Shown: one piece after another, positions 4,556-64,000 of the stretch | Layout of the letters: each line of letters opens with the position of its first letter | Position numbering within the stretch: the first letter of the stretch is position 1 | Origin: Octopus vulgaris | Lineage: Eukaryota | DNA: 64,000 bases | Assembly (NCBI GenBank): GCA_951406725.2 | Contig: OX597817.1 | Span: forward strand, 89,094,001-89,158,000 | Reading direction: 5' to 3' | Made by a program: the position numbers and the translations under genes | The notes under the pieces: generated by a model | The model's input: the letters and a program-made list of their open reading frames with translations, nothing else | What the model was told of the DNA's origin: nothing | The model's database searches: none

Positions 4556-7315
4556 ACGTAGGAAAACAGAGCGGGATTTAGTTAGAAAACTAGACGAGGC
4601 TCTTGAGGCAGGCATCGCAACCGACGTGTTGGCGGCTAGGTTGGCCCTCGATCAACACTTTGACGCCAAACACGAAAGCTGCGTTGTCAGAGGTAAGGCG
4701 CGTTCGCTAAGCGGGGAGGGGACTAAGGCCGCTTGATGGGTCCGCATGGTGGAGGCGAAGCGTGGCAACAAAGCGACCAATCTGTCTTTGGTGGACCAGA
4801 ACGGGCGCGAGGTTTCCGAACCGAAGCAGATGTGCGGTGTTTCAGCGGCACTTTGCTCAACTGTTTGGGATGAACGGTGGCACGGACAACTGGACAGACT
4901 TCGGTGTGTACCTGGACGGCCTACCGCAACTCTCGGACAGCGAGGCGGAGTGCTGCGAAAGACCGATATCTGCCTGGGAAGTGGAGGAAGCAATGAAGAG
5001 CTGCACGAGAGGCAGATCGCCGGGTTTAGATGGTCTGCTCTACTCTACGAGCTTTACACTTCAATGCCAGACTTGTTTGCGGGCTTCTCGGCAAACGTCT
5101 ACTGCAACTGGTAACAAAACGGGAGAATTCCTGCTTTTGTTTGTCGAGGAGTGGTGGATTTTCTGAGAAAGGACCCAAACAAAGGGGGTGTTATAGGGAA
5201 CTTTAGGCCCATCACTCGGCTCAATGCAGAGTTGAAGATTTTGGCCAAGGTGCTAGCCAAGAGATTGGCGCTTGTCGTGGACAAGCAGATTGGTAAGGCG
5301 CAGACATGCGCCGTGCCGACCAGGTCGATACACGATAATCTCCATCTCATGCGCTACATCATAGAGAGGGTGGGTGACGACACTGGCGCGGGTGGGGCTT
5401 TGATCAATTTAGATCAGAGTAAAGCCTTCAATAGGGTCGACCATCGATACCTGGCAGCTGTTCTCAAGGCAGCCGGTTTGTACAGCAACATCTGCTCGGT
5501 GATACGGGTGAACGGTCACCTTTCGGAGCCGTTTGACATCTCGCGTTCGGTTCGCAAAGGATGCCCTCTCTCCTCCCTCTTGTACATATTGACTCTCGAG
5601 CCATTACTGCGCAAGTTGGAGGCTTTGAGGGGTATCCCACGTGATCTAGGAGATGGAAACAGCGTGTCTGCCTATGCCGATGACGTCTCCATGATGGTGT
5701 GCCTGTGGATCGCCACAGGCACATTGACCTGATTAGCGAGACACTAAACGAGTACGAAGCGGTGACAGGTGCAAAGATTAACGCGGAAAAGTCCGTGGGC
5801 TTGCAACTGGGCACCTGGAGAGGGAAGTCCATGCCGTCCAACAGTGTCGTAGGGCGCTGGACAGACGGACCCGTTAAACTGCTCGGGGTCTGGTTCGGTC
5901 CAGACCTCCAGGTGGATAAAAACTGGGAAGAGGTGACGAACAGGGTGGCCAATCCTCACCCAGAAATGGGCCGAGAGGAAGCTGTCACTGAAAGGTCGAG
6001 CGGAGGTGGCGAATGCGTACATCGCATCCGTCATCTATTACCGATTGACCGTCGTCCCTTGTCCCGACTGCTGGTTGGCCAAGCTGGTGCGCTTGCTCTT
6101 CGACTTTTTGTGGAAGGGTCAGGTACTACTGGTCAGGAGATCCATCTACTGTCAACGGCCGCTGAACGGAGGCCTTGGAATGCCGTGGTTACTGATGCGC
6201 AGACATGCGCTCAGGCTACGGCATCTCAAGTGTTTCCTAGACGGTGAACAGGTGTGGTCATCTTTTGTCAGACGCGACTTTCCGCAGCTCGTCTCTTTGA
6301 CAGAGTTGCAGTCTTGGATCAAACGCAGACCGAGACAGGGCGCTTGGCACCTCGAGTGCCGTCAAGCTCTCTCCGCCCTCCACCAAGCGGGCAATGCGAT
6401 CGGTGGTGGTTCCACTCTAGCGTTCTATAGAGGGTTAGTGGAAGAAAAGTTCGACGACGTTCTCGTGGAAACTCTAGGCGTTGACGATAACGAGCTAAAC
6501 AGTCTGTTCGGGAGAAATTTCGGGCCGGGGCCAATGGATAATTTCCAAAGGTCTCTCGCCTGGCAGTGCTACCGAGGGGCTCTGCCTGTTTGGGATAAAC
6601 TCTACTGGCACGGAAGTGCCGTCAGACGGGCCTGCCTGAGGTGCGCCCAGGACGATGAAACCGTTCTGCATGCACTCGTCTAGTGCCCGAGTATTGTTGA
6701 ACTATGAGTTTATGTCGAACAGCTACTGTCGCGTATAGGACGGATCCAGCTACCAGCTGAATCCATAGTGAGGATTGCCCCGCCGACCTCCTTTAACCGG
6801 GAGGGCAAGGTAGTTTTCCTTTGCCTAGTGGCTGTAGCGAAAGAGGTGATATGGTGGACCCGTTTGAAAGGGCTAAGGTCAGACACTTTCCTCTTTGGCC
6901 AAGGCCTCATCAACTTTTTCAAGTTTCACTTGAAAAGGAAGAGGAGAGTAGAGAGGGAAGTGATGTCTGGTAGCAAGTTTATTGCAAGATGGGTGAATGT
7001 CGCAAGAATGGCCAGTATGAACGGACCAATTCTGAGGATACACCTGTGAAAATTAAAAGGAAATATAAAAGGAGAAAGGGGCTCTCTACCCCCTTTTGAC
7101 CAGGCTCCCGTTGGCTTTTATGGTTTTTTCCACGAGTAACCTTTCGAAGCGCCTCCTCCTATTAAGAGTTTTAATTGTTACTTATATTTCGTTGTTATCT
7201 TGCTTTTGAACACGGACTTTTTTGAAACGGACAAAACCCTTTGTAACTTTCGTCCTGTGTTTTGTCCCTTTATGTTTTAATTGATTTTTGTTAGCCCTTG
7301 TGGCCAATAAACGAA
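4556..7315 (+). mobile_element. 5'-truncated Tx1/L1-group LINE with frameshifted ORF2 (RT plus CCHC knuckle), inserted in a (TTA)n tract
   Basis: Motifs SPGLDGL, NFRPITRLNAELKILAKVLAKRL, LDQSKAFNRV, VRKGCPLS, AYADDV, KLLGVWFG, GGLGMP, CLRC...ETVLHAL. 3'UTR with AATAAA near 7306. (TTA)n on both sides (4385-4555, 7318-7375). Confidence 0.92.
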
Positions 7316-16984: not shown

Positions 16985-16988
<4 letters not shown>

Positions 16989-17404
16989 ATTTATTTATTG
17001 CCTACAAGGGGGCTAAACATAAAGGGGACAGACAAGGACAGACAAAGGGATTAAGTCGATTAGATCGACCCCAGTGCGTAACTGGTACTTAATTTATTAA
17101 CCCCGAAACGATGAAACGCAAAGTCGACCTCGGCGGAATTTGAACTCAGAACGTAACGGCAGACGAAATACCTATTTCTGTTTTACCCACAAGGGGCTAA
17201 ACACAGAGAGGACAAACAAGGACAGACAAACGGATTAAGTCGATTATATCGACCCCAGTGCGTAATGGTCCTTATTTAATCGACCCCGAAAAGATGAAAG
17301 GCAAAGTCGACCTCGGTGGAATTTGAACTCAGAACGTGGCGGCAGACGAAATACCGCTAAGCATTTTGCCCGGCATGCTAACGTTTCTGCCAGCTCACCG
17401 CCTT
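16985..17404 (-). mobile_element. Dimeric SINE family A
   Basis: Two tandem core units. Closely similar to 53362-53772. Confidence 0.9.
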
Positions 17405-17405
17405 T

Positions 17406-17501
<96 letters not shown>

Positions 17502-19586: not shown

Positions 19587-19677
19587 TTTTAGCTGATGAG
19601 TACGGGACACTTTTATCTGCTGCAATTTTTGCAACTTGTAATAAAGCCTGTCTTTGTATGAAACAATTGTACTAAAA
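19587..19677 (+). ncRNA. Type I hammerhead ribozyme with long stem II, inside a ~195-bp (TA)n-flanked insert (19513-19707)
   Basis: TTTTAG-CTGATGA-[GTACGGGACA...TGTCTTTGTAT]-GAAA-CAATTG-TA-CTAAAA. Canonical core, 6-bp stem I, palindromic stem III, predicted cleavage after 19671. Confidence 0.85.
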
Positions 19678-21315: not shown

Positions 21316-21528
21316 CGAGACATGAATTAACTTGAGAAATGAATTGTTGATATTTTGAAATTCTCTTTCCTTCAATTGTGAATGGTCACATATTATCTCT
21401 AAGTTCTTGTATGTTCCCTCCAGCTCAGTGCGAAATTTCAATGAATTTATCCTCTATCTTTGACAGGTTTTCGTCATCAGAAAGTGGCCATGCTGAGGCA
21501 CCGCCTTGAAAAAATGTATATGCACATA

Positions 21529-22402
21529 CAGGGTGCAGTGAATATATTGTCGTCTAAATTACGCATCAAAGGAAAATAACACTGACATCTCATTTTAACA
21601 TATATTTACCAAAATTACATAAAAATACTTTTAAATACTAAAGAGTGAATTTATTCAATAAAATTGCCATTGGATTCAACCACAGCCTCCAGACGACTTC
21701 GGAATCTCCTGCAACTCTTCTGGATGGTCTCCGTGTTTAAGTTGGTCGATGCTGCCATAATCTTTGCTTTCGGTTAATCTTTGGTGTTTCAAGGAGTTTT
21801 GTTGGTCTCTCGCTCAACTCCGCCCCATACATAATAATCAAGGAGTTTGCAGTCTGAGGAATTAGATGCCCAAATGTTAGGGATGATGTGGTCGCAGAAA
21901 TTGTCTAACAGCCATGACTGTGTTCTGCTTGTGTGGCATGGTGCAGAGTCCTGTTGCCAGACATAGGGACTTCTAGCAGGCACCCTCTCGATCCAGGGCA
22001 GCACTGCCTCCTCCAGGCATTTGTTGTAGGCCTCCGTGCTGAGTCTGAGGCTGTGTAGGAAGATGAATGGAGGCATAACGTCGCCAGTACTAGTGATCGC
22101 TCTAAACACCATGTTGTCGATTGGATGATTTTTTATCATTCTCAGTAGATGCCCTCAGTTTGCACTGTCCTCAGATTGACACCTAAACACTCTGAAATGT
22201 TCGTATTGGAGCTTCCGGCGCGAATGCCAAGCAGCACAGCATGTCGTTTCCAAATTTCTGGCAGAGCAAATTTATCATGGTGCTGTTTTTCTCAAAGACA
22301 GTGCCCAGCTGATCCTACTATATTGTATAGTCGACAAAATAAAAAACAAGCAATGCGCATGCGCGGAATTAAAAATGTCAACAATTTATACATCGCACTC
22401 TA
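21529..22402 (-). mobile_element. maT (DD37D, Bmmar1-like) Tc1/mariner transposon, internally deleted
   Basis: TA-flanked TIR CAGGGTGCAGTGAA. Transposase motifs YVWQQDSAPCHT and IW..NS.DC..LDYYVWG. Second copy at 42744-43605. Confidence 0.88.
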
Positions 22403-22409
22403 TATATAT

Positions 22410-22465
<56 letters not shown>

Positions 22466-22499
22466 TGTGTATTTGTGTCTGTGTTAACAGACATAAGAG

Positions 22500-24959: not shown

Positions 24960-26115
24960 CCTTCTTGGTAAGGAAAATAGTTTTCATTTAATCTTGACTC
25001 TTTTTCTTTCTCAACAATATTGGTATACAAAATTCGTACCCTTACGAAAATGATAACCAAACTATGTTGAGTGATTTTCTCGTACGAGTACAAACTGGGT
25101 CACTCTGTCGCAGAAGCTCAACGGAATATCAAGCGGGCCTTTGATAATGGTTTTGCTGACATCAGAACTGTTCAGAGATGGTTCCAAAGCTCTCGTTCAG
25201 GAGATGATAGCCTTGAAAATAAACCAAGAGGTAGGGCAAAATTAGTTATTAAACGCTTTGGTTGAACAAAATCAGAACAAAGGTTCGAAAACTTTTATCA
25301 GAACTCCAAACATCTCGAACAACTGTTTTTGGACACCTACAAAAAATTGAAAAAGTCAAGAAAACAGAGAGGTTTGTTCCACATCAACTGAACGAGATTA
25401 AAAAAAAACACAGACGCCTCGAAGTGTGCTCGTTATTGTTTTCTCGACTGGGAAAAGACCATTTTTGCATCAAATCAGTACTTGTGATGAAAACTGGATA
25501 GTCTTTGGCAATAGCAGGAGAACAGGACAGTGATTAGATGCAGGAGAGTCACCTAAACACTAACCAAGCCTTACATTGTACCCTAAAATGTTAGTGGTCA
25601 CTGTATGGTGGTCTGCGAAGGGAGTTATTCATTGTTCATTTTTGCAACAAGGAAAAGCGGTAACAGCAACATCGTATTGTGAGGAAATTGATTGTATGCA
25701 TGAGAATTTGCAAAAGAAGCAACCCAGACTAGTGAGTAGAGATGGCCCAGTTTTGCTCCACAACAATGCACGTCCTCACACTCCTCAAGCTACAGTCCAA
25801 AAGTTACAAAGCCTGAATTATGAGATTTTGCAACAGCCTCCCTATTCCCCTGATATCTCTCCTACTATTCACTTATTTAAGCATTTTGAACTTTTCATAA
25901 GCAACAAAACATTCTTAAATAAAGAAGAAGTAAATGAAGCATTCGGACAGCAAAAGATGATTTTTTTTTTAAGATGGAATATATGACATGTAAAAACTTT
26001 GGGTAAACGTCATAAATGAACATGGATCATACTTTGATTAAATAAATCAGTTCTCTAACACTTCTGAAGCATTTTATTGTTACCTTTCAAACACATTTCA
26101 TGTGAAACAACCTGA
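24960..26115 (+). mobile_element. Decayed mariner (DD34D) transposon
   Basis: Peptides YEYKLGHSVAEAQRNI...TVQRWF...SLENKPRGR, FVPHQL, DENWI, VTVWWSAKGVIH, LLHNNARPHT and PPYSPDISP. Mariner-like 3' TIR ...AACAACCTGATA. The 5' limit is approximate. Confidence 0.9.
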
Positions 26116-27037: not shown

Positions 27038-27100
<63 letters not shown>

Positions 27101-27105
<5 letters not shown>

Positions 27106-27731
27106 ATACAGTATACGTTCAAACACAAAAGAGATACCCGAAGAATAGGATATCTGACTCGCTAGAAAGAGCAGTTAAAACTCCAAGCCACCAATTGTTG
27201 TAATTCCGAAAGTGATTGAAAAATAAAAAACTTTTACCTTAATCCTAGACTCTGCAAGGTTTCTGCAGACTTAAATACAGACTGAAATAAGATAATTTCA
27301 GTCTATATCTAGCACTGCGTCCTCAGTAGGTTGCCAAGACTGAATCCATAGACATGGATCTATAAGTAATCAGCCACGTGTTCTATTTTTTCGAATTTAC
27401 CGCGCAGATGCGGAACTTAATCAGCACTAAATAAATAAATTGCCGATTTTCCTCCAGAATTAGCCAAAAAAACATTTTATCATTAATTAAAATCTTAGGG
27501 TAGCAAGAATATTCATCGAAAAATTCTTAGTGGTAGACCACATGGAGTTTTAACTGCTCTTTCTAGCGAGTCAGATATCCTATTCTTTGGGTATTTCTTT
27601 TGTGTTTGAACGTACACTGTATTCTTCTCTGAATAATATATAGTCTATTGACTAAATTTTCTTTCTCGCTAGACCACTGGTAACTAAGAATTTTTCGATG
27701 AATATTCTTGCTACCCTAAGATTTTAATTAA

Positions 27732-27736
<5 letters not shown>
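27101..27736. mobile_element. Head-to-head, circularly permuted HHR element (family F3)
   Basis: A (27101-27185) is inverted at 27543-27627. D (27478-27530) is inverted at 27684-27736. Flanked by (TA)n(GA)n and (TA)n. Same family at 63713-64000. Confidence 0.85.
27244..27330 (-). ncRNA. Type I hammerhead ribozyme, canonical core, GUC site (F3)
   Basis: Minus strand CCTA-CTGAGGA-cGCAG...TAGACTGAAAT/ATTTCAGTCTG...CTGCa-GAAA-CCTTGCAGAG-TC-TAGG. Near-palindromic stem III. C-A mismatch at the base of stem II. Cleavage between 27248 and 27247. Confidence 0.82.
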
Positions 27737-27801
<65 letters not shown>

Positions 27802-39564: not shown

Positions 39565-39797
39565 AGCAGTGAGCTGGTAGAAACGTTTGCACGCCAGGCG
39601 AAGTGCTTAGTGGTATTTCATCTGCCGCTACGTTCTGAGTTCAAATTCCGCCGAGGCCGACTTTGCCTTTAATCCTTTCGAGGTCGATTAATTAATTACC
39701 AGTTACGCACTGGGGTCGATGTAATCGACTTAATCCTTTTGTCTGTCCTTGTTTGTCCCCTCTATGTTTAGCCCCTTGTGGGCAATAAAGAAATAAG
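39565..39797 (+). mobile_element. SINE family A
   Basis: Full head-core-tail ending GGCAATAAAGAAATAAGAA. Confidence 0.88.
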
Positions 39798-39833
39798 AAT
39801 GTGTGTAATATTTTCCAGATCAGACCTCTACAT

Positions 39834-42621: not shown

Positions 42622-42672
<51 letters not shown>

Positions 42673-42743
42673 ACACACATATATACATACAAACACATGT
42701 ATACATGCATTTTTATACACGCGCACGCAAGTACACTCACATA

Positions 42744-43605
42744 CAGGGTATGATGGGTAAATTGTCGCCATTTTGCATTATTAATTTCGTGCATGCGCAT
42801 TGCTTGTTTTTGATGTTGTCGACTACACAATATAATTGGGTCAGTTGGCACCGCCTTTGAGAGAAACAGCACCATGACGCAATTCACTCTGCCAGAAATT
42901 TGCAAACGACATGCTGTACTGCTTGGCATTCACGCCGGTAGCTCCAATACGAACATTTCAGTGTTCGGTTGTCAATTTGAGGCCATCTACCGAAAATGAT
43001 AAAAATTAAACATACAGTCGACATCATGGCGTTTGGAGTGATCATTAGTGATCGCGACCTTATGCTTCCATTCATCTTCCCACACGGCCTCAGACTCAAC
43101 ACAGAGGCTTACATCAAGTGCCTGGAGTTGGTAGCACTGCCGTGGGTCGAGTGGGTGGCTGTTGAAATACCCTATGTCTGGCAACAGGACCTGCCCCATT
43201 CTACACAATCAGGAGAACCCAGTCATGGCTGTCAAACAATTTCTGCAACCACATCAGCATATCCCCAGTCCATATCCCAGACTGCAACCCCCTTGATTAT
43301 TACGTGTGGAGCGTAGTTGGGCGAGAGATCAACAAAACTCCTTGTAACACCAAAGATGAACTGAAGGCAAGGATTATGGCAGCATTCACCAACTTAAACG
43401 AGGAGAGCATCCAGAAGTGTTGCAGGAGATTCCGAAATCGACTGGAGGCCGTGGTTGAAACCAATGGCAGTTTTATTCAATAATTTACTTTTTTGTATTT
43501 CAAGATATTTTTATGTAATTTTGGTAAATATATTTGTTAAAATAAGATGTCAGTGTTATTTTCATTTTTACGTAATTTAGACGGCATTTTATTCACTGCT
43601 CCCTG
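42744..43605 (+). mobile_element. maT (DD37D) transposon, internally deleted
   Basis: TA-flanked CAGGG TIRs. Peptide PFIFPHGLRLNTEAYIKCLE...PYVWQQD. Homologous to 21529-22402. Confidence 0.88.
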
Positions 43606-44267
43606 TATAAACACTAACATGTTAAGTTCTCTGTTCCTCCAGCTTGGGAAAACAAACCTATGAGTGTATGTGTGTGTATGTATGTGTGTGTGCGTGTGTG
43701 TGCGTGTGTGATATATGTATGTGTGCATGTAAGTGTATGTGTATGTATGTGGGTTTGTGTGTTTGCGTGTGTGTGCCCGCGCATGCGTGTGTGTATGTGT
43801 GTGTGTGCGTGTGTGTGTGTGAGAAAACAAATCTATGAGTGTATGTGTGTGTGTATTTGCGTGTGTGTGCCCGCGCGTGCGTGTGTCTATGTGTGTATGT
43901 ACGCGTGTATGTGTGTGCATGTATGTATGTATGTATGCATGTATGCAAGTATGCAAGTATGCAAGTATGTATGTATGCATGTATGCATGTATGCATACAT
44001 GTATGTATGTTTGTGTATATGTATGTTTGTATGTATGTGTGTATGTATGTGAGTGCGTTATATGTGATGTAAGCATGGAACAGGTGTGTTGAATAAAAAT
44101 ATGCCATTGAGGGTTTAGCAAATGCTATTCACAACACTGATGGCATCTGTGAAAACAGACTTTGTTTTTCAGATGTGTACACACAAATATGCGTTTACAC
44201 ACACACACACACACACATGTGTACATGTATATGCATATATCCATACACACACTGATACATACATATA

Positions 44268-46807: not shown

Positions 46808-47590
46808 AAGGCGGCGAGGTGGCGGAGACGTTAGCACGATGGACAAAATGCTTAACGGCATTTTGTCCGTCTTTACGTTCTGAGTTCCGATTCCGCCGGG
46901 GTCGACTTTGCCTTTCAAATCCTTTCGGGGTCGATAAAACAAGTAGCAGCTGATAACTGAGGTCAATGTAATCGACTTACCCCTTATCTCTGTCTTGCTG
47001 GCCTTGTAGTGGTGGTGGTGGTGGCGCCGGTGGTGACGGTGGTGGTAGTAGTGGTGGTGATGGTGGTGGTGACGGTTGTCAACATTTACAACAGCAATAA
47101 CAACAGAAACAGCAACAGCAACAACAATAACAGCGTCCCATGTATTTAGCTAAGTGATGATGTCTTGCAAGGTGGTTTGAAAGAAGGCGGCGAGCTGGCA
47201 GAAACGTTAGCACGCCGGACGAAATGCTTAGAGGTATTTCGTCCGCGCTACGTTCTGAGTTCAAGTTCCGCCGAGGTCGACTTTACCTTTTATGCTTTCG
47301 GGGTCGTTTAAATAAGTAATAGTTATGCACTGGGGTCAATATAATCGACTTAATCCCTTTGTCTGTCTTTGTTTGTCTCCTCTATATTTAGCCCCTTGTG
47401 GGCAATAAAAAAATAAGAAACGTTAGCACGCCGGGCGAAATGCCTAGCGGTATTCGTCTGTCTTTACGTTCTGAGTTCAAATTCCGCCGAGGTCGACTTT
47501 GCCTTTCATCCTTTCGGGGTCGATAAATTAAGTACCAGTTGCGTACTGGGATCGATCTAAAATTTCTGAGCTTGTGCCTAGAGTAGAAAA
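46808..47590 (+). mobile_element. Family A SINEs (46808-47007 and dimer 47184-47590) separated by (GGT)n/(CAA)n
   Basis: GGCGGCGAG.TGGC heads and conserved cores. Confidence 0.88.
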
Positions 47591-53361: not shown

Positions 53362-53772
53362 TTCTTATTTCTTTACTGCCCACAAGGGGCTAAACATAGA
53401 GGGGACAAATAACGGGATTAAGTCGATTACATCGACCCTAGTGCGTAACTGGTACTTAATTTATCGACCCCGAAAGGATGAAAGACAAAGTCGACCTCGG
53501 CGGAATTTGAACTCAGAACGTAGCGGCAGACGAAATACCTATTTCTTTATTACCCACAAGGGGCTAAACACAGAGAGGACAAACAAGGACAGACAACCGG
53601 ATTAAGTCGATTATATCGACCCCAGTGCGTAACTGGTACTTATTTAATCGACCCAGAAAGGATGAAAGGCAAAGTCGACCTCGGCGGAATTTGAACTAAG
53701 AACGTAGTGGCAGACAAAATACCTCTAAGCATTTCGCCCGGCGTGCTAACGTTTCTGCCAGCTCGCCGCCTT
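53362..53772 (-). mobile_element. Dimeric SINE family A nested in a family B SINE
   Basis: TSD-like CAAGCTTCTTA on both sides. The host SINE B resumes afterwards. Confidence 0.9.
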
Positions 53773-54439
53773 ATCACACAAGCTTCTTACCACACAACCC
53801 CACCTGCGCCTATTAACTAAGATTATCGTTTATCTGAGTAACCAAGGGTGCCAACTCCGATCTTTTCTGGGTGTAAGCTTTTATTAGTAGAAATTCAGCA
53901 AATATTTCTTACTGATTTACAGCACAGACTCAGTCGTGGCTTTTCCTCTCGTAGGGTACAGATGAGGGTTCCACAATTTCTCGTAGAACAGATGATTTGT
54001 TTATTGTAGTCAAATGCCGTGTGTTAGCTCACTCCGTCCATCCAGATGTCGAAGTGATTGTAGAGCAACGTGAAATGAATGTTTTGCTAAAAAAAAAAAA
54101 CAACGCAACGCCCGGTTCACGAATCTGCTGATCATGAGTACAAGATTTCATGCAGCCCTCATTCAGACTCAAATGTACAGAATATTACTGAGAAAGTAAA
54201 CCATGATGCAACGTTGGGAAACGCAATTATTTGGTAATTTGAGTCTCTTTCTGGCGCAGCCAAGCAATAATATTAGCTAACGCTAATGTTTCTCTTTAAC
54301 CCCCACTGAAAACACTCAAAATTCATTAATCCTTTATTCTTTTAAAAACAATCTATTAAATCGACTGCAGTATGTTACTGTTGCGTATTCCCTCGTCATC
54401 AAAAGAAGTAAATTATAAATTATAATCGATCCTCATGGC

Positions 54440-63334: not shown

Positions 63335-63712
63335 CTTTTTCTTGTTTACATATTTTGCTACTTTTTCCCTCGTTCGTCTACGTATTTCATGTTGTTTGCA
63401 CTGTATATATATATACATATGCACACATACATATTTATAAATATATATATATATATGTATATCTGTGTGTGTGTGTGTATGTGTGTGTGTATATTATTCA
63501 TTATGTATTATTTAATTGAATGCGACGCAGATCTAGCCCTTCTGATTCGCAAAATGAGCCCCCTTTAATTTTGCACAGATTGCTTTCAGTTTTGGTGTAT
63601 CAATGCAACTCTGAATTTTGATTACTTAAATTAAAGAATCTGGTGTTATTTGGAATTAAAGTTGAAAAATTTATATATATATATATATATAAATTTGAAA
63701 AATTTATATATA

Positions 63713-64000
63713 TAATTAAAATCTTAGAGTAGCAAGAATATTTATCGAAGAAATTCTTAGTTACCAGTGGTCTAGTGAGAAGGAAAAAATTAGTCAATAG
63801 ACTATATATTATTCAGAGAAGAATACAGTGTACATTCAAACAAAAACAGATACCCAAAAATAGGATATCTGACTCACTAGAAAGAGCAGTTAAACTCCAA
63901 GGTAAAAGTTTTTATTTTTCAATCACTTTCGAAATTACAACAATTAGTGAGTTGGAGTTTAACTGCTCTTTCTAGTGAGTCAGATATCCTATTATTTGGG
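63713..64000. mobile_element. Second family F3 head-to-head insertion (runs off the window end)
   Basis: (TA)n-D-E'-A, then a strand switch at ~63899 to C'-A'. Homologous to 27101-27736. Confidence 0.85.

Follow-up and report, generated by a model that had tools for sequence, protein, structure and literature searches.

The stretch of Octopus vulgaris DNA analysed here, hereafter called the window (64,000 nt, contig OX597817.1, positions 89,094,001 to 89,158,000), contains two insertions of a dispersed repeat family, F3, whose members are very probably non-LTR retrozymes, likely non-autonomous PLEs, and were probably inserted into (TA)n tracts by a PLE RT-endonuclease acting in trans.

Positions within the repeat are given on a monomer numbering in which m1 is the first base past the predicted hammerhead cut, corresponding to window position 27247 read on the minus strand. 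The first insertion, located between (AT)n(AG)n and (TA)n, is formed by a 434-nt main arm (27098..27531), whose minus strand is the sense RNA strand, and by a 195-nt inverted arm (27543..27737), sense on the plus strand. The main arm runs from m201 through the m488/m1 joint to m146, an 'early' 3' end, and the inverted arm from m61 to m255, a 'late' one. The two arms share 88 nt at 96.6% identity and 54 nt at 100%, and face each other 5' to 5' across an 11-nt spacer (27532..27542) which holds a short copy of m189-196. The left target flank (27040..27100) is made of (AT)n followed by (AG)n, the (CT)n tract adjoining the early 3' end, and the right one (27734..27801) of (TA)n. The second insertion (L186), at 63.7-64.0 kb, is 89-91% identical. 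It comprises a late arm (63698..63901, minus strand), extending from m59 to about m255-263, and an early arm (63899..64000, plus strand), which starts at m8, 7 nt off the cut, and stops at m112 in (TA)n, just outside the window edge; it contains no hammerhead, which is present at the first locus only. An earlier, sequence-only reading of the window had placed the segments of both loci at these positions. It had also stated that the 3' end of the hammerhead strand runs into (TA)n at both loci, which needs correction for the main arm, whose 3' end meets (CT)n first and (TA)n after it.

In the same reading, the segments of the two loci had been joined into a closed cycle of 486 nt with no obvious ORF, and a tandem or circular RNA of monomer length had been proposed as template. 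A search of the 2.8-Gb assembly (227 contigs) revealed both natural tandem arrays and permuted copies, which support the closed cycle and a template of this kind. In particular, a natural array of 3.0 copies (L031, G000:C4:20.84 Mb) has a period of 488 with 93% matches; the unit, measured from cut to cut, is thus 488 nt long rather than 486, with a GC content of 36%. In this array, stop-free frames reach at most 53 aa and Met-ORFs at most 28 aa, in keeping with a unit that has no obvious ORF. At one end of the array, a 15-nt unit across the hammerhead cut is repeated 3.2 times (L031:2723-2770).

The family is large. At least 1,185 candidate places were found for the main arm, 40 of which were scored, at least 1,940 for the inverted arm and at least 200 for the hammerhead region, and exact patterns matched 69 and 145 times genome-wide, versus 0 for reversed controls. 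Most copies are short and have no hammerhead, and long arrays are rare, the 3-copy array being the only one in the 40 scored places (of at least 1,185). Overall, 231 unique segments from 186 loci were mapped, 218 of which were kept (at least 80% identity and at least 40 nt) and 13 dropped. Within these query-ascertained sets the D>E junction is spanned by 110 of 218 segments, Z>D by 48 and the hammerhead cut is crossed by 103, while 30 segments are longer than one unit. More distant relatives were observed at L089, L030 and L249.

Two sister families were met in the flanks of F3 copies, with units of 506 nt (1,790 candidate places; L257-L287) and 471 nt (2,694 candidate places; L359-L388). Both are retrozyme-like, have the same anatomy as F3, and are collinear with it all round the circle (70% for the 506-nt and 78% for the 471-nt family, in lenient global alignments). 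Their hammerheads keep the core, while the stems change with pairing retained: the four stem II pairs following position 10.1-11.1 are GCAG/CUGC in F3, AAUC/GAUU in the 506-nt family and GACU/AGUC or AACU/AGUU in the 471-nt family; the first stem I pair is A-U or G-C depending on the family, and the stem III palindrome is also altered without loss of pairing. These changes point to selection on the hammerhead fold, and they indicate that the monomer is an old unit and not the product of a local deletion.

The copies might have been 5'-truncated pseudo-LTR debris of an autonomous PLE, in which a local deletion had created the cycle. Such debris would explain why most copies are short and hammerhead-less (about 200 versus about 1,900 candidate places) and why their anatomy is that of PLE ends. 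It is nevertheless very improbable, and largely refuted, since the Z>D junction recurs in 48 segments instead of being confined to the window locus, the closed cycle is kept in three families, and 148 insertion blocks reveal no shared 5' flank starting from the same monomer position and no RT ORF linked to F3. PLE protein matches were found in 6 of 246 family loci, and in 1 of 30 for the third family, all of them unlinked fragments; the flanks shared by 37 pairs of loci are other common repeats or belong to the segmental duplicate L123/L124. A retrozyme or an internally deleted PLE, as suggested from the window alone, is therefore supported, no copy running into a common RT ORF. The duplicate itself lies on C1, its two copies 52 kb apart with flanks 99.5-99.8% identical, and carries, in addition to an F3 copy, a fragment resembling a further PLE RT type.

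The hammerhead of the first locus (27244..27330, minus strand) is of type I with a long stem II, and its cut is predicted between 27248 and 27247 (GUC/UAGG). Its elements are CCUA (27330-27327), CUGAGGA (27326-27320), GAAA (27263-27260), GUC (27250-27248) and UAGG (27247-27244). The general F3 motif consists of a CCUA/UAGG stem I, CUGARGA, a 56-nt stem II insert, GAAA, a CCU-UGCA-GGG stem III and UC. Among 92 copies spanning the hammerhead, the core is intact in 82, and core and stems together in 51. Position 10.1-11.1 is paired in just 4 of the 92, the others having A.A (67) or C.A (21); A.A is found at the same place in 33/34 and 24/26 sister hammerheads. In the window copy, which has C.A there, a G>A change also breaks a stem III pair, and this mismatch probably makes it a weakened ribozyme. 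The single GUC hammerhead recognized by the sequence-only reading is thus correct in position and strand, while the term 'canonical' does not apply, given the 56-nt insert, the unpaired 10.1-11.1 and the stem III mismatch. No match to Rfam was found in the window at the gathering threshold, and around the locus just low-complexity noise appeared at E<=10. The local fold is stable (z=-3.5), with a minimum-energy structure different from the ribozyme fold. Cleavage efficiency is in doubt, judging from the 10.1-11.1 mismatch and from the 51 of 92 copies with core and stems intact; in vitro, 8 of 9 predicted Xenopus retrozymes failed to cleave, as reported in 10.64898/2026.07.22.740005, and a long helix II with an unpaired base at its 5' end has been described for PLE hammerheads (PMC4209133). 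Two further hammerhead motifs were seen in the window, at 19593 (+) and 31319 (+), one of them with a long stem II, and related motifs in L225, L065, L025, L008 and L044; the genome is rich in such families.

The mapped ends reveal how insertions are built. Two clusters of sense 3' ends are seen, an early one at m90-170 and a late one at m230-270, and no 3' end falls at the cut. A (TA)4 motif lies within 40 nt of the 3' end in 157 of 218 segments, against a background of 7.8%, and near the 5' end in 30 of 231. Adjacent arms of opposite orientation are joined 5'-5' in 76 of 76 cases, never 3'-3', with overlapping bases at 46 of the 76 junctions. Taken with the 3' ends at (TA)n, such joins give each arm the expected look of a cDNA primed from one target end. 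The two arms of a pair rarely start in the same region: when both ends could be classed, an early arm was paired to a late one in 60 of 64 F3 twins (p=4e-14), pairs with an end outside both classes (12 of 76) being left out of the test. The pairing holds in the exact-pattern (46/48) and in the hammerhead-pattern (16/20) subsets, and in the sisters (14/15 and 13/14, from sets ascertained through a late arm, 3 of 18 and 2 of 16 pairs being left out as above). Single-arm copies are equally divided, 28 being early and 29 late. Twin arms are 95.5% identical, versus 92.4% between loci, and seldom differ in subfamily variants (14 of 143 discordant, versus 34% between loci); sharing of variants indicates that they derive from one RNA or from one source locus. 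Target-site duplications are unreadable, as insertions end within (TA)n.

Inverted ends and tandem units are also features of repeats propagated at the DNA level, either satellites or MITEs with terminal inverted repeats, in which the hammerhead would be incidental. Here the inverted arms vary in length, end positions differ between the two sides, polarity is strict and hammerhead stems covary across families; polarity and covariation are taken to refute this reading, which deserves hardly any credence.

Two arms in 5'-5' arrangement are likewise the outcome of L1 twin priming, and LINEs are abundant in this genome. F3 could accordingly be pictured as the SINE-like passenger of a microsatellite-targeting LINE, inverted through twin priming of the L1 type; this is very unlikely, since F3 has no poly(A) or fixed 3' tail, its 3' ends being internal and of two classes. 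Moreover, the arms of L1 inversions are not known to copy overlapping regions, whereas such regions were copied by both F3 arms in 50 of 60 pairs, the early arm reaching further 5' in 42 of the 60. Finally, the hammerhead, the retained-intron signals and the one-sided tail are PLE traits, according to PMC8557442 and PMC4209133.

One class of early ends is associated with a specific flank: of the 13 ends lying at m143-148, 10 are followed by (CT)n, compared with 1 of the 205 remaining ends. The tract could have arisen at priming, if CUCU was copied repeatedly as by telomerase, could have been part of a compound-microsatellite target, or could have expanded afterwards. Its interposition between element and (TA)n was seen in the window (27070-27100) and at L005, L013, L014, L017, L019, L070, L073, L077 and L090.

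The 5' ends of the arms are informative about the template RNA. Among 105 arms reaching m66, 39 stop at m11-66, 13 stop at m1-10 and 53 cross the cut, of which 3 end within the next 10 nt. At m1-10 the rate of 5' ends is 2.1 per 100 nt; it is 0.40 over the 185 nt preceding the cut (p=1.4e-5) and 0.77 over m11-66 (p=0.003). In late-start arms the pile-up is weak, an exposure of 235 nt yielding 3 ends. In five copies the first base is m1 itself, and three of these lie flush with (TA)n. The accumulation just past the cut suggests hammerhead cleavage in vivo, and by the simplest reading some template RNAs would have their 5' end there; part of the accumulation could be due to stalling of the RT in stem I or to TA/AAG microhomology.

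Templates longer than one linear monomer are also required, either multimers or circles, by the 103 cut-crossing and the 30 over-unit arms. A template consisting specifically of a covalently closed 488-nt circular RNA, read round more than once by the RT, would produce such arms, and is given a probability just short of one half. Diagnostic variants agree between successive rounds of one arm (5 of 47 discordant), rare alleles are shared as well (0.93% vs 0.07%), and early arms stop more often when re-entering m260-m158 (1.14 vs 0.45 per 100 nt, 14 ends), as would be expected of a circle; retrozymes of mussel, coral and axolotl do form circles, as described in PMC7229834. On the other hand, the pile-up of ends at the cut is not expected of a circular template, which lacks a 5' end, and it extends to arms that have made over one full turn: L037 stops at m5, having copied 731 nt, and L011 at m8, having copied 609 nt, as would fit linear dimers. 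Shared variants are equally well accounted for by a young, homogeneous tandem, and the circular fold of the monomer is just modestly stable (z=-1.9). Non-diagnostic differences are more frequent between two rounds of one arm (5.7%) than between twin arms (4.1%; p=0.003), an excess that a freshly read circle would not predict, unless the copies are older. Linear multimers fit the data as well as circular RNA does. Short F3 pieces occur in assembled contigs of presumed RNA runs, which carry no information on ends, strand or circularity.

The course of events favoured here for F3, as a retrozyme mobilized by a PLE enzyme, would be the following. Transcription of tandem source loci would start at an internal promoter located upstream of the ribozyme, for which segment Z (27331..27477, minus strand) is a possible candidate, as it contains conserved CGC..GCG and TATA/CACG blocks in the three-family alignment. 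The ribozyme would cut part of the RNA, so that both monomers and incompletely cleaved multimers would begin at m1; circles might form too, at the slightly less than even probability given above. The PLE enzyme would then bind the conserved m60-m260 region, nick both (TA)n strands, and produce one cDNA at each target end. A candidate RT-binding element in this region, proposed from its conservation, is the stretch at 27554..27617 (plus strand), where the block CTGYTCTTTCTA is followed by a hairpin with family-specific complementary stems and by TGTGTTT..TACAC. One cDNA would be primed at the early internal site (m90-170) and the other at the late one (m230-270), with the help of short AT microhomology. 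Both would run toward the 5' end of the RNA, stopping at or before the cut, or passing it on uncut, multimeric or circular RNA, and would be joined through microhomology into a palindrome. Arms covering over one unit would regenerate tandem sources.

In its most far-reaching form, the proposal states that at least three intron-bearing retrozyme families, with about 6,000 candidate places in all, record the PLE reaction: each insertion would be the work of a single asymmetric complex, which uses a different fixed site for each of the two target ends, the sites being separated by about 100 nt. The RNA copied, possibly a circle, would owe its 5' end to the hammerhead. We consider this version to have an even chance of being right. 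If true, it would provide genomic evidence that retrozymes move by PLE machinery, would explain the one-sided PLE tail by obligatory early and late priming, and would mean that a hammerhead with A.A at the base of stem II cuts in vivo.

The intron of these families is predicted, its limits being m11-m191 and its length 181 nt. A splice-donor-like site, AAG/GUAAAAG, lies 10 nt past the cut in the window (27231..27239, minus strand); a predicted donor is found 10-16 nt past the cut in all three families, which also keep GGTAAA. At the other border, a branch-point-like TGACTAA, a pyrimidine tract and an AG acceptor are located at 27649..27672 (plus strand), and a branch-like TGACTA, a pyrimidine tract and an AG near m191 are present in the three families. 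A genome-wide search for a spliced copy, allowing up to 1 mismatch, gave 0 matches, and no spliced joint occurs among the matches listed in presumed-RNA contigs. The lack of spliced genomic copies leaves the intron at the level of a prediction, and is expected if the template is unspliced RNA.

With these signals, the F3 monomer looks like a PLE pseudo-LTR plus an intron-bearing 5' UTR, minus the ORF. A GIY-YIG profile, two Hydra-like protein queries, nucleotide profiles and alignments controlled by shuffling were used to look for an autonomous partner. The 110 PLE-bearing loci sampled from thousands of candidates contained no sequence homologous to the monomers (best E about 0.06-0.4). Some apparent links were discarded. 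The score of an alignment between F3 and a Neptune-like 5' UTR was also reached in 19 of 300 shuffles. In two other cases, where a sister copy lies 1.2 kb away from a Neptune-like ORF and where a Hydra-like fragment lies beside the second window locus, (TA)n and unrelated DNA separate the repeat from the PLE sequence.

PLEs potentially able to act in trans are present in the genome; the clade names used for them are provisional, being read from motifs against PMC8557442. Intact Neptune-like elements contain an ORF1 and a 781-aa RT-GIY-YIG. In a young representative (L247, L237, L238, L254) a 479-aa upstream ORF overlaps the 781-aa one, and the copy at L247 has identical 504-nt pseudo-LTRs; by eye, a minimal hammerhead-like motif was noticed in this young element over a possible splice acceptor. 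A young Hydra-like PLE forms 3.6-kb tandems with many intact 899-aa ORFs (L319, at G000:C1:119.52 Mb, and L289-L328), and features a DKT motif, RT-GIY-YIG, and long-stem-II hammerheads resembling those of F3. Based on ribozyme shape and target, the best guess for the F3 partner is a Hydra-like PLE. At 4 loci, the inverted arms of the young Hydra-like PLE also seem to have two end sites, lying about +50-65 and +210-230 from the cut.

Metazoan retrozymes were defined by Cervera and de la Pena (2020, PMC7229834), who described circles in coral, mussel and axolotl and proposed PLEs as mobilisers; vertebrate retrozymes have been linked to pseudo-LTRs in a sampling that, as described, contains no mollusc (Li et al. 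2026, bioRxiv 10.64898/2026.07.22.740005). Like the non-LTR retrozymes of metazoans, F3 is composed of protein-less head-to-tail units with one type I hammerhead, has a GC content below 50% and is accompanied by PLEs; its mismatch at the stem II base has a precedent in axolotl HHR_Amex2. Its length of 488 nt lies outside the 150-450 nt given in PMC7229834 and within the 51-972 nt of 10.64898/2026.07.22.740005. F3 differs in that its copies are mostly dispersed, truncated twin-arm palindromes rather than arrays, and in the 56-nt stem II insert, the A.A at 10.1-11.1 and the predicted retained intron; moreover, it is known here from genomic DNA, while circles were seen for the coral, mussel and axolotl elements.

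For PLEs, an inverted copy, a tail at one end, (TA)n targets and 5' UTR introns have been reported (Craig et al. 2021, PMC8557442 and preprint). F3 shares with the Hydra and Neptune elements described there an inverted 5'-truncated neighbour copy, the tail at one end and the (TA)n targets, and parallels their hammerhead in the pseudo-LTR and their 5' UTR intron signals. It differs from them in having no RT or GIY-YIG ORF, and a tail of about 100 nt versus 30-40 nt, and its sequence is not homologous to the Hydra-like and Neptune-like pseudo-LTRs that were sampled. According to the same source, the Chlamys non-autonomous elements (MRC1) are non-coding, multicopy, head-to-tail PLE derivatives, as F3 appears to be; F3 is unlike them in that MRC1-type elements resemble an identified autonomous family and most Chlamys elements have no hammerhead.

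In vitro, PLE priming involves two strands and two internal sites (Frangieh et al. 2024, PMC11167929). The element used, Poseidon PAc of Anolis, has in common with F3 two internal RT starts downstream of the hammerhead, extension of both target strands, AT-rich targets and a predicted dimer. As reported there, the PAc starts are adjacent, lie inside the ORF and show no strand difference, whereas F3 sites are about 100 nt apart, one per arm; and no RNA ends were found at the PAc cut, whereas genomic 5' ends of F3 pile up at the F3 cut.

The retrozyme class is therefore already described, and the one-sided PLE tail is already known qualitatively. Added here are a host group for which the searched literature gave no report, a ribozyme variant shared by three families, and counted evidence, obtained from genomic copies, for what appear to be paired early and late priming and RNA ends at the cut. 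No retrozyme or hammerhead report for octopus or cephalopods was found among the papers listed by literature searches, and the main text of the octopus repeat annotation (PMC13282606) mentions neither ribozymes nor retrozymes; the F3 sequence may be present, unlabelled, in the HHR file of PMC8557442 and in the repeat library of PMC13282606.

F3 is short, abundant and non-coding, which makes its ends countable. Early and late pairing in three families, together with the 5' pile-up, narrows the possible schemes to a single RNA or an asymmetric dimer, involving either strand displacement or two templates. The pairing would hence constrain how a PLE enzyme primes, and bears both on retrozyme movement and on the origin of inverted PLE insertions with a tail on one side. 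The 488-nt RNA could be used directly as substrate when PLE enzymes are assayed in vitro, and intact candidate enzymes are available in the genome.

Other repeats were noticed in the window. A further dispersed family, with a unit of about 185 nt and inverted arrangements, is found at 16985-17407, 39571-39799, 47184-47560 and 53363-53775. A broken L1/Tx1-like LINE, with RVT_1 and zf-RVT matches, extends over 4700-7050. Mariner-type transposase fragments are located at 25564-25986 and, as recognized by eye, at 21526-22484 and 42655-43608.
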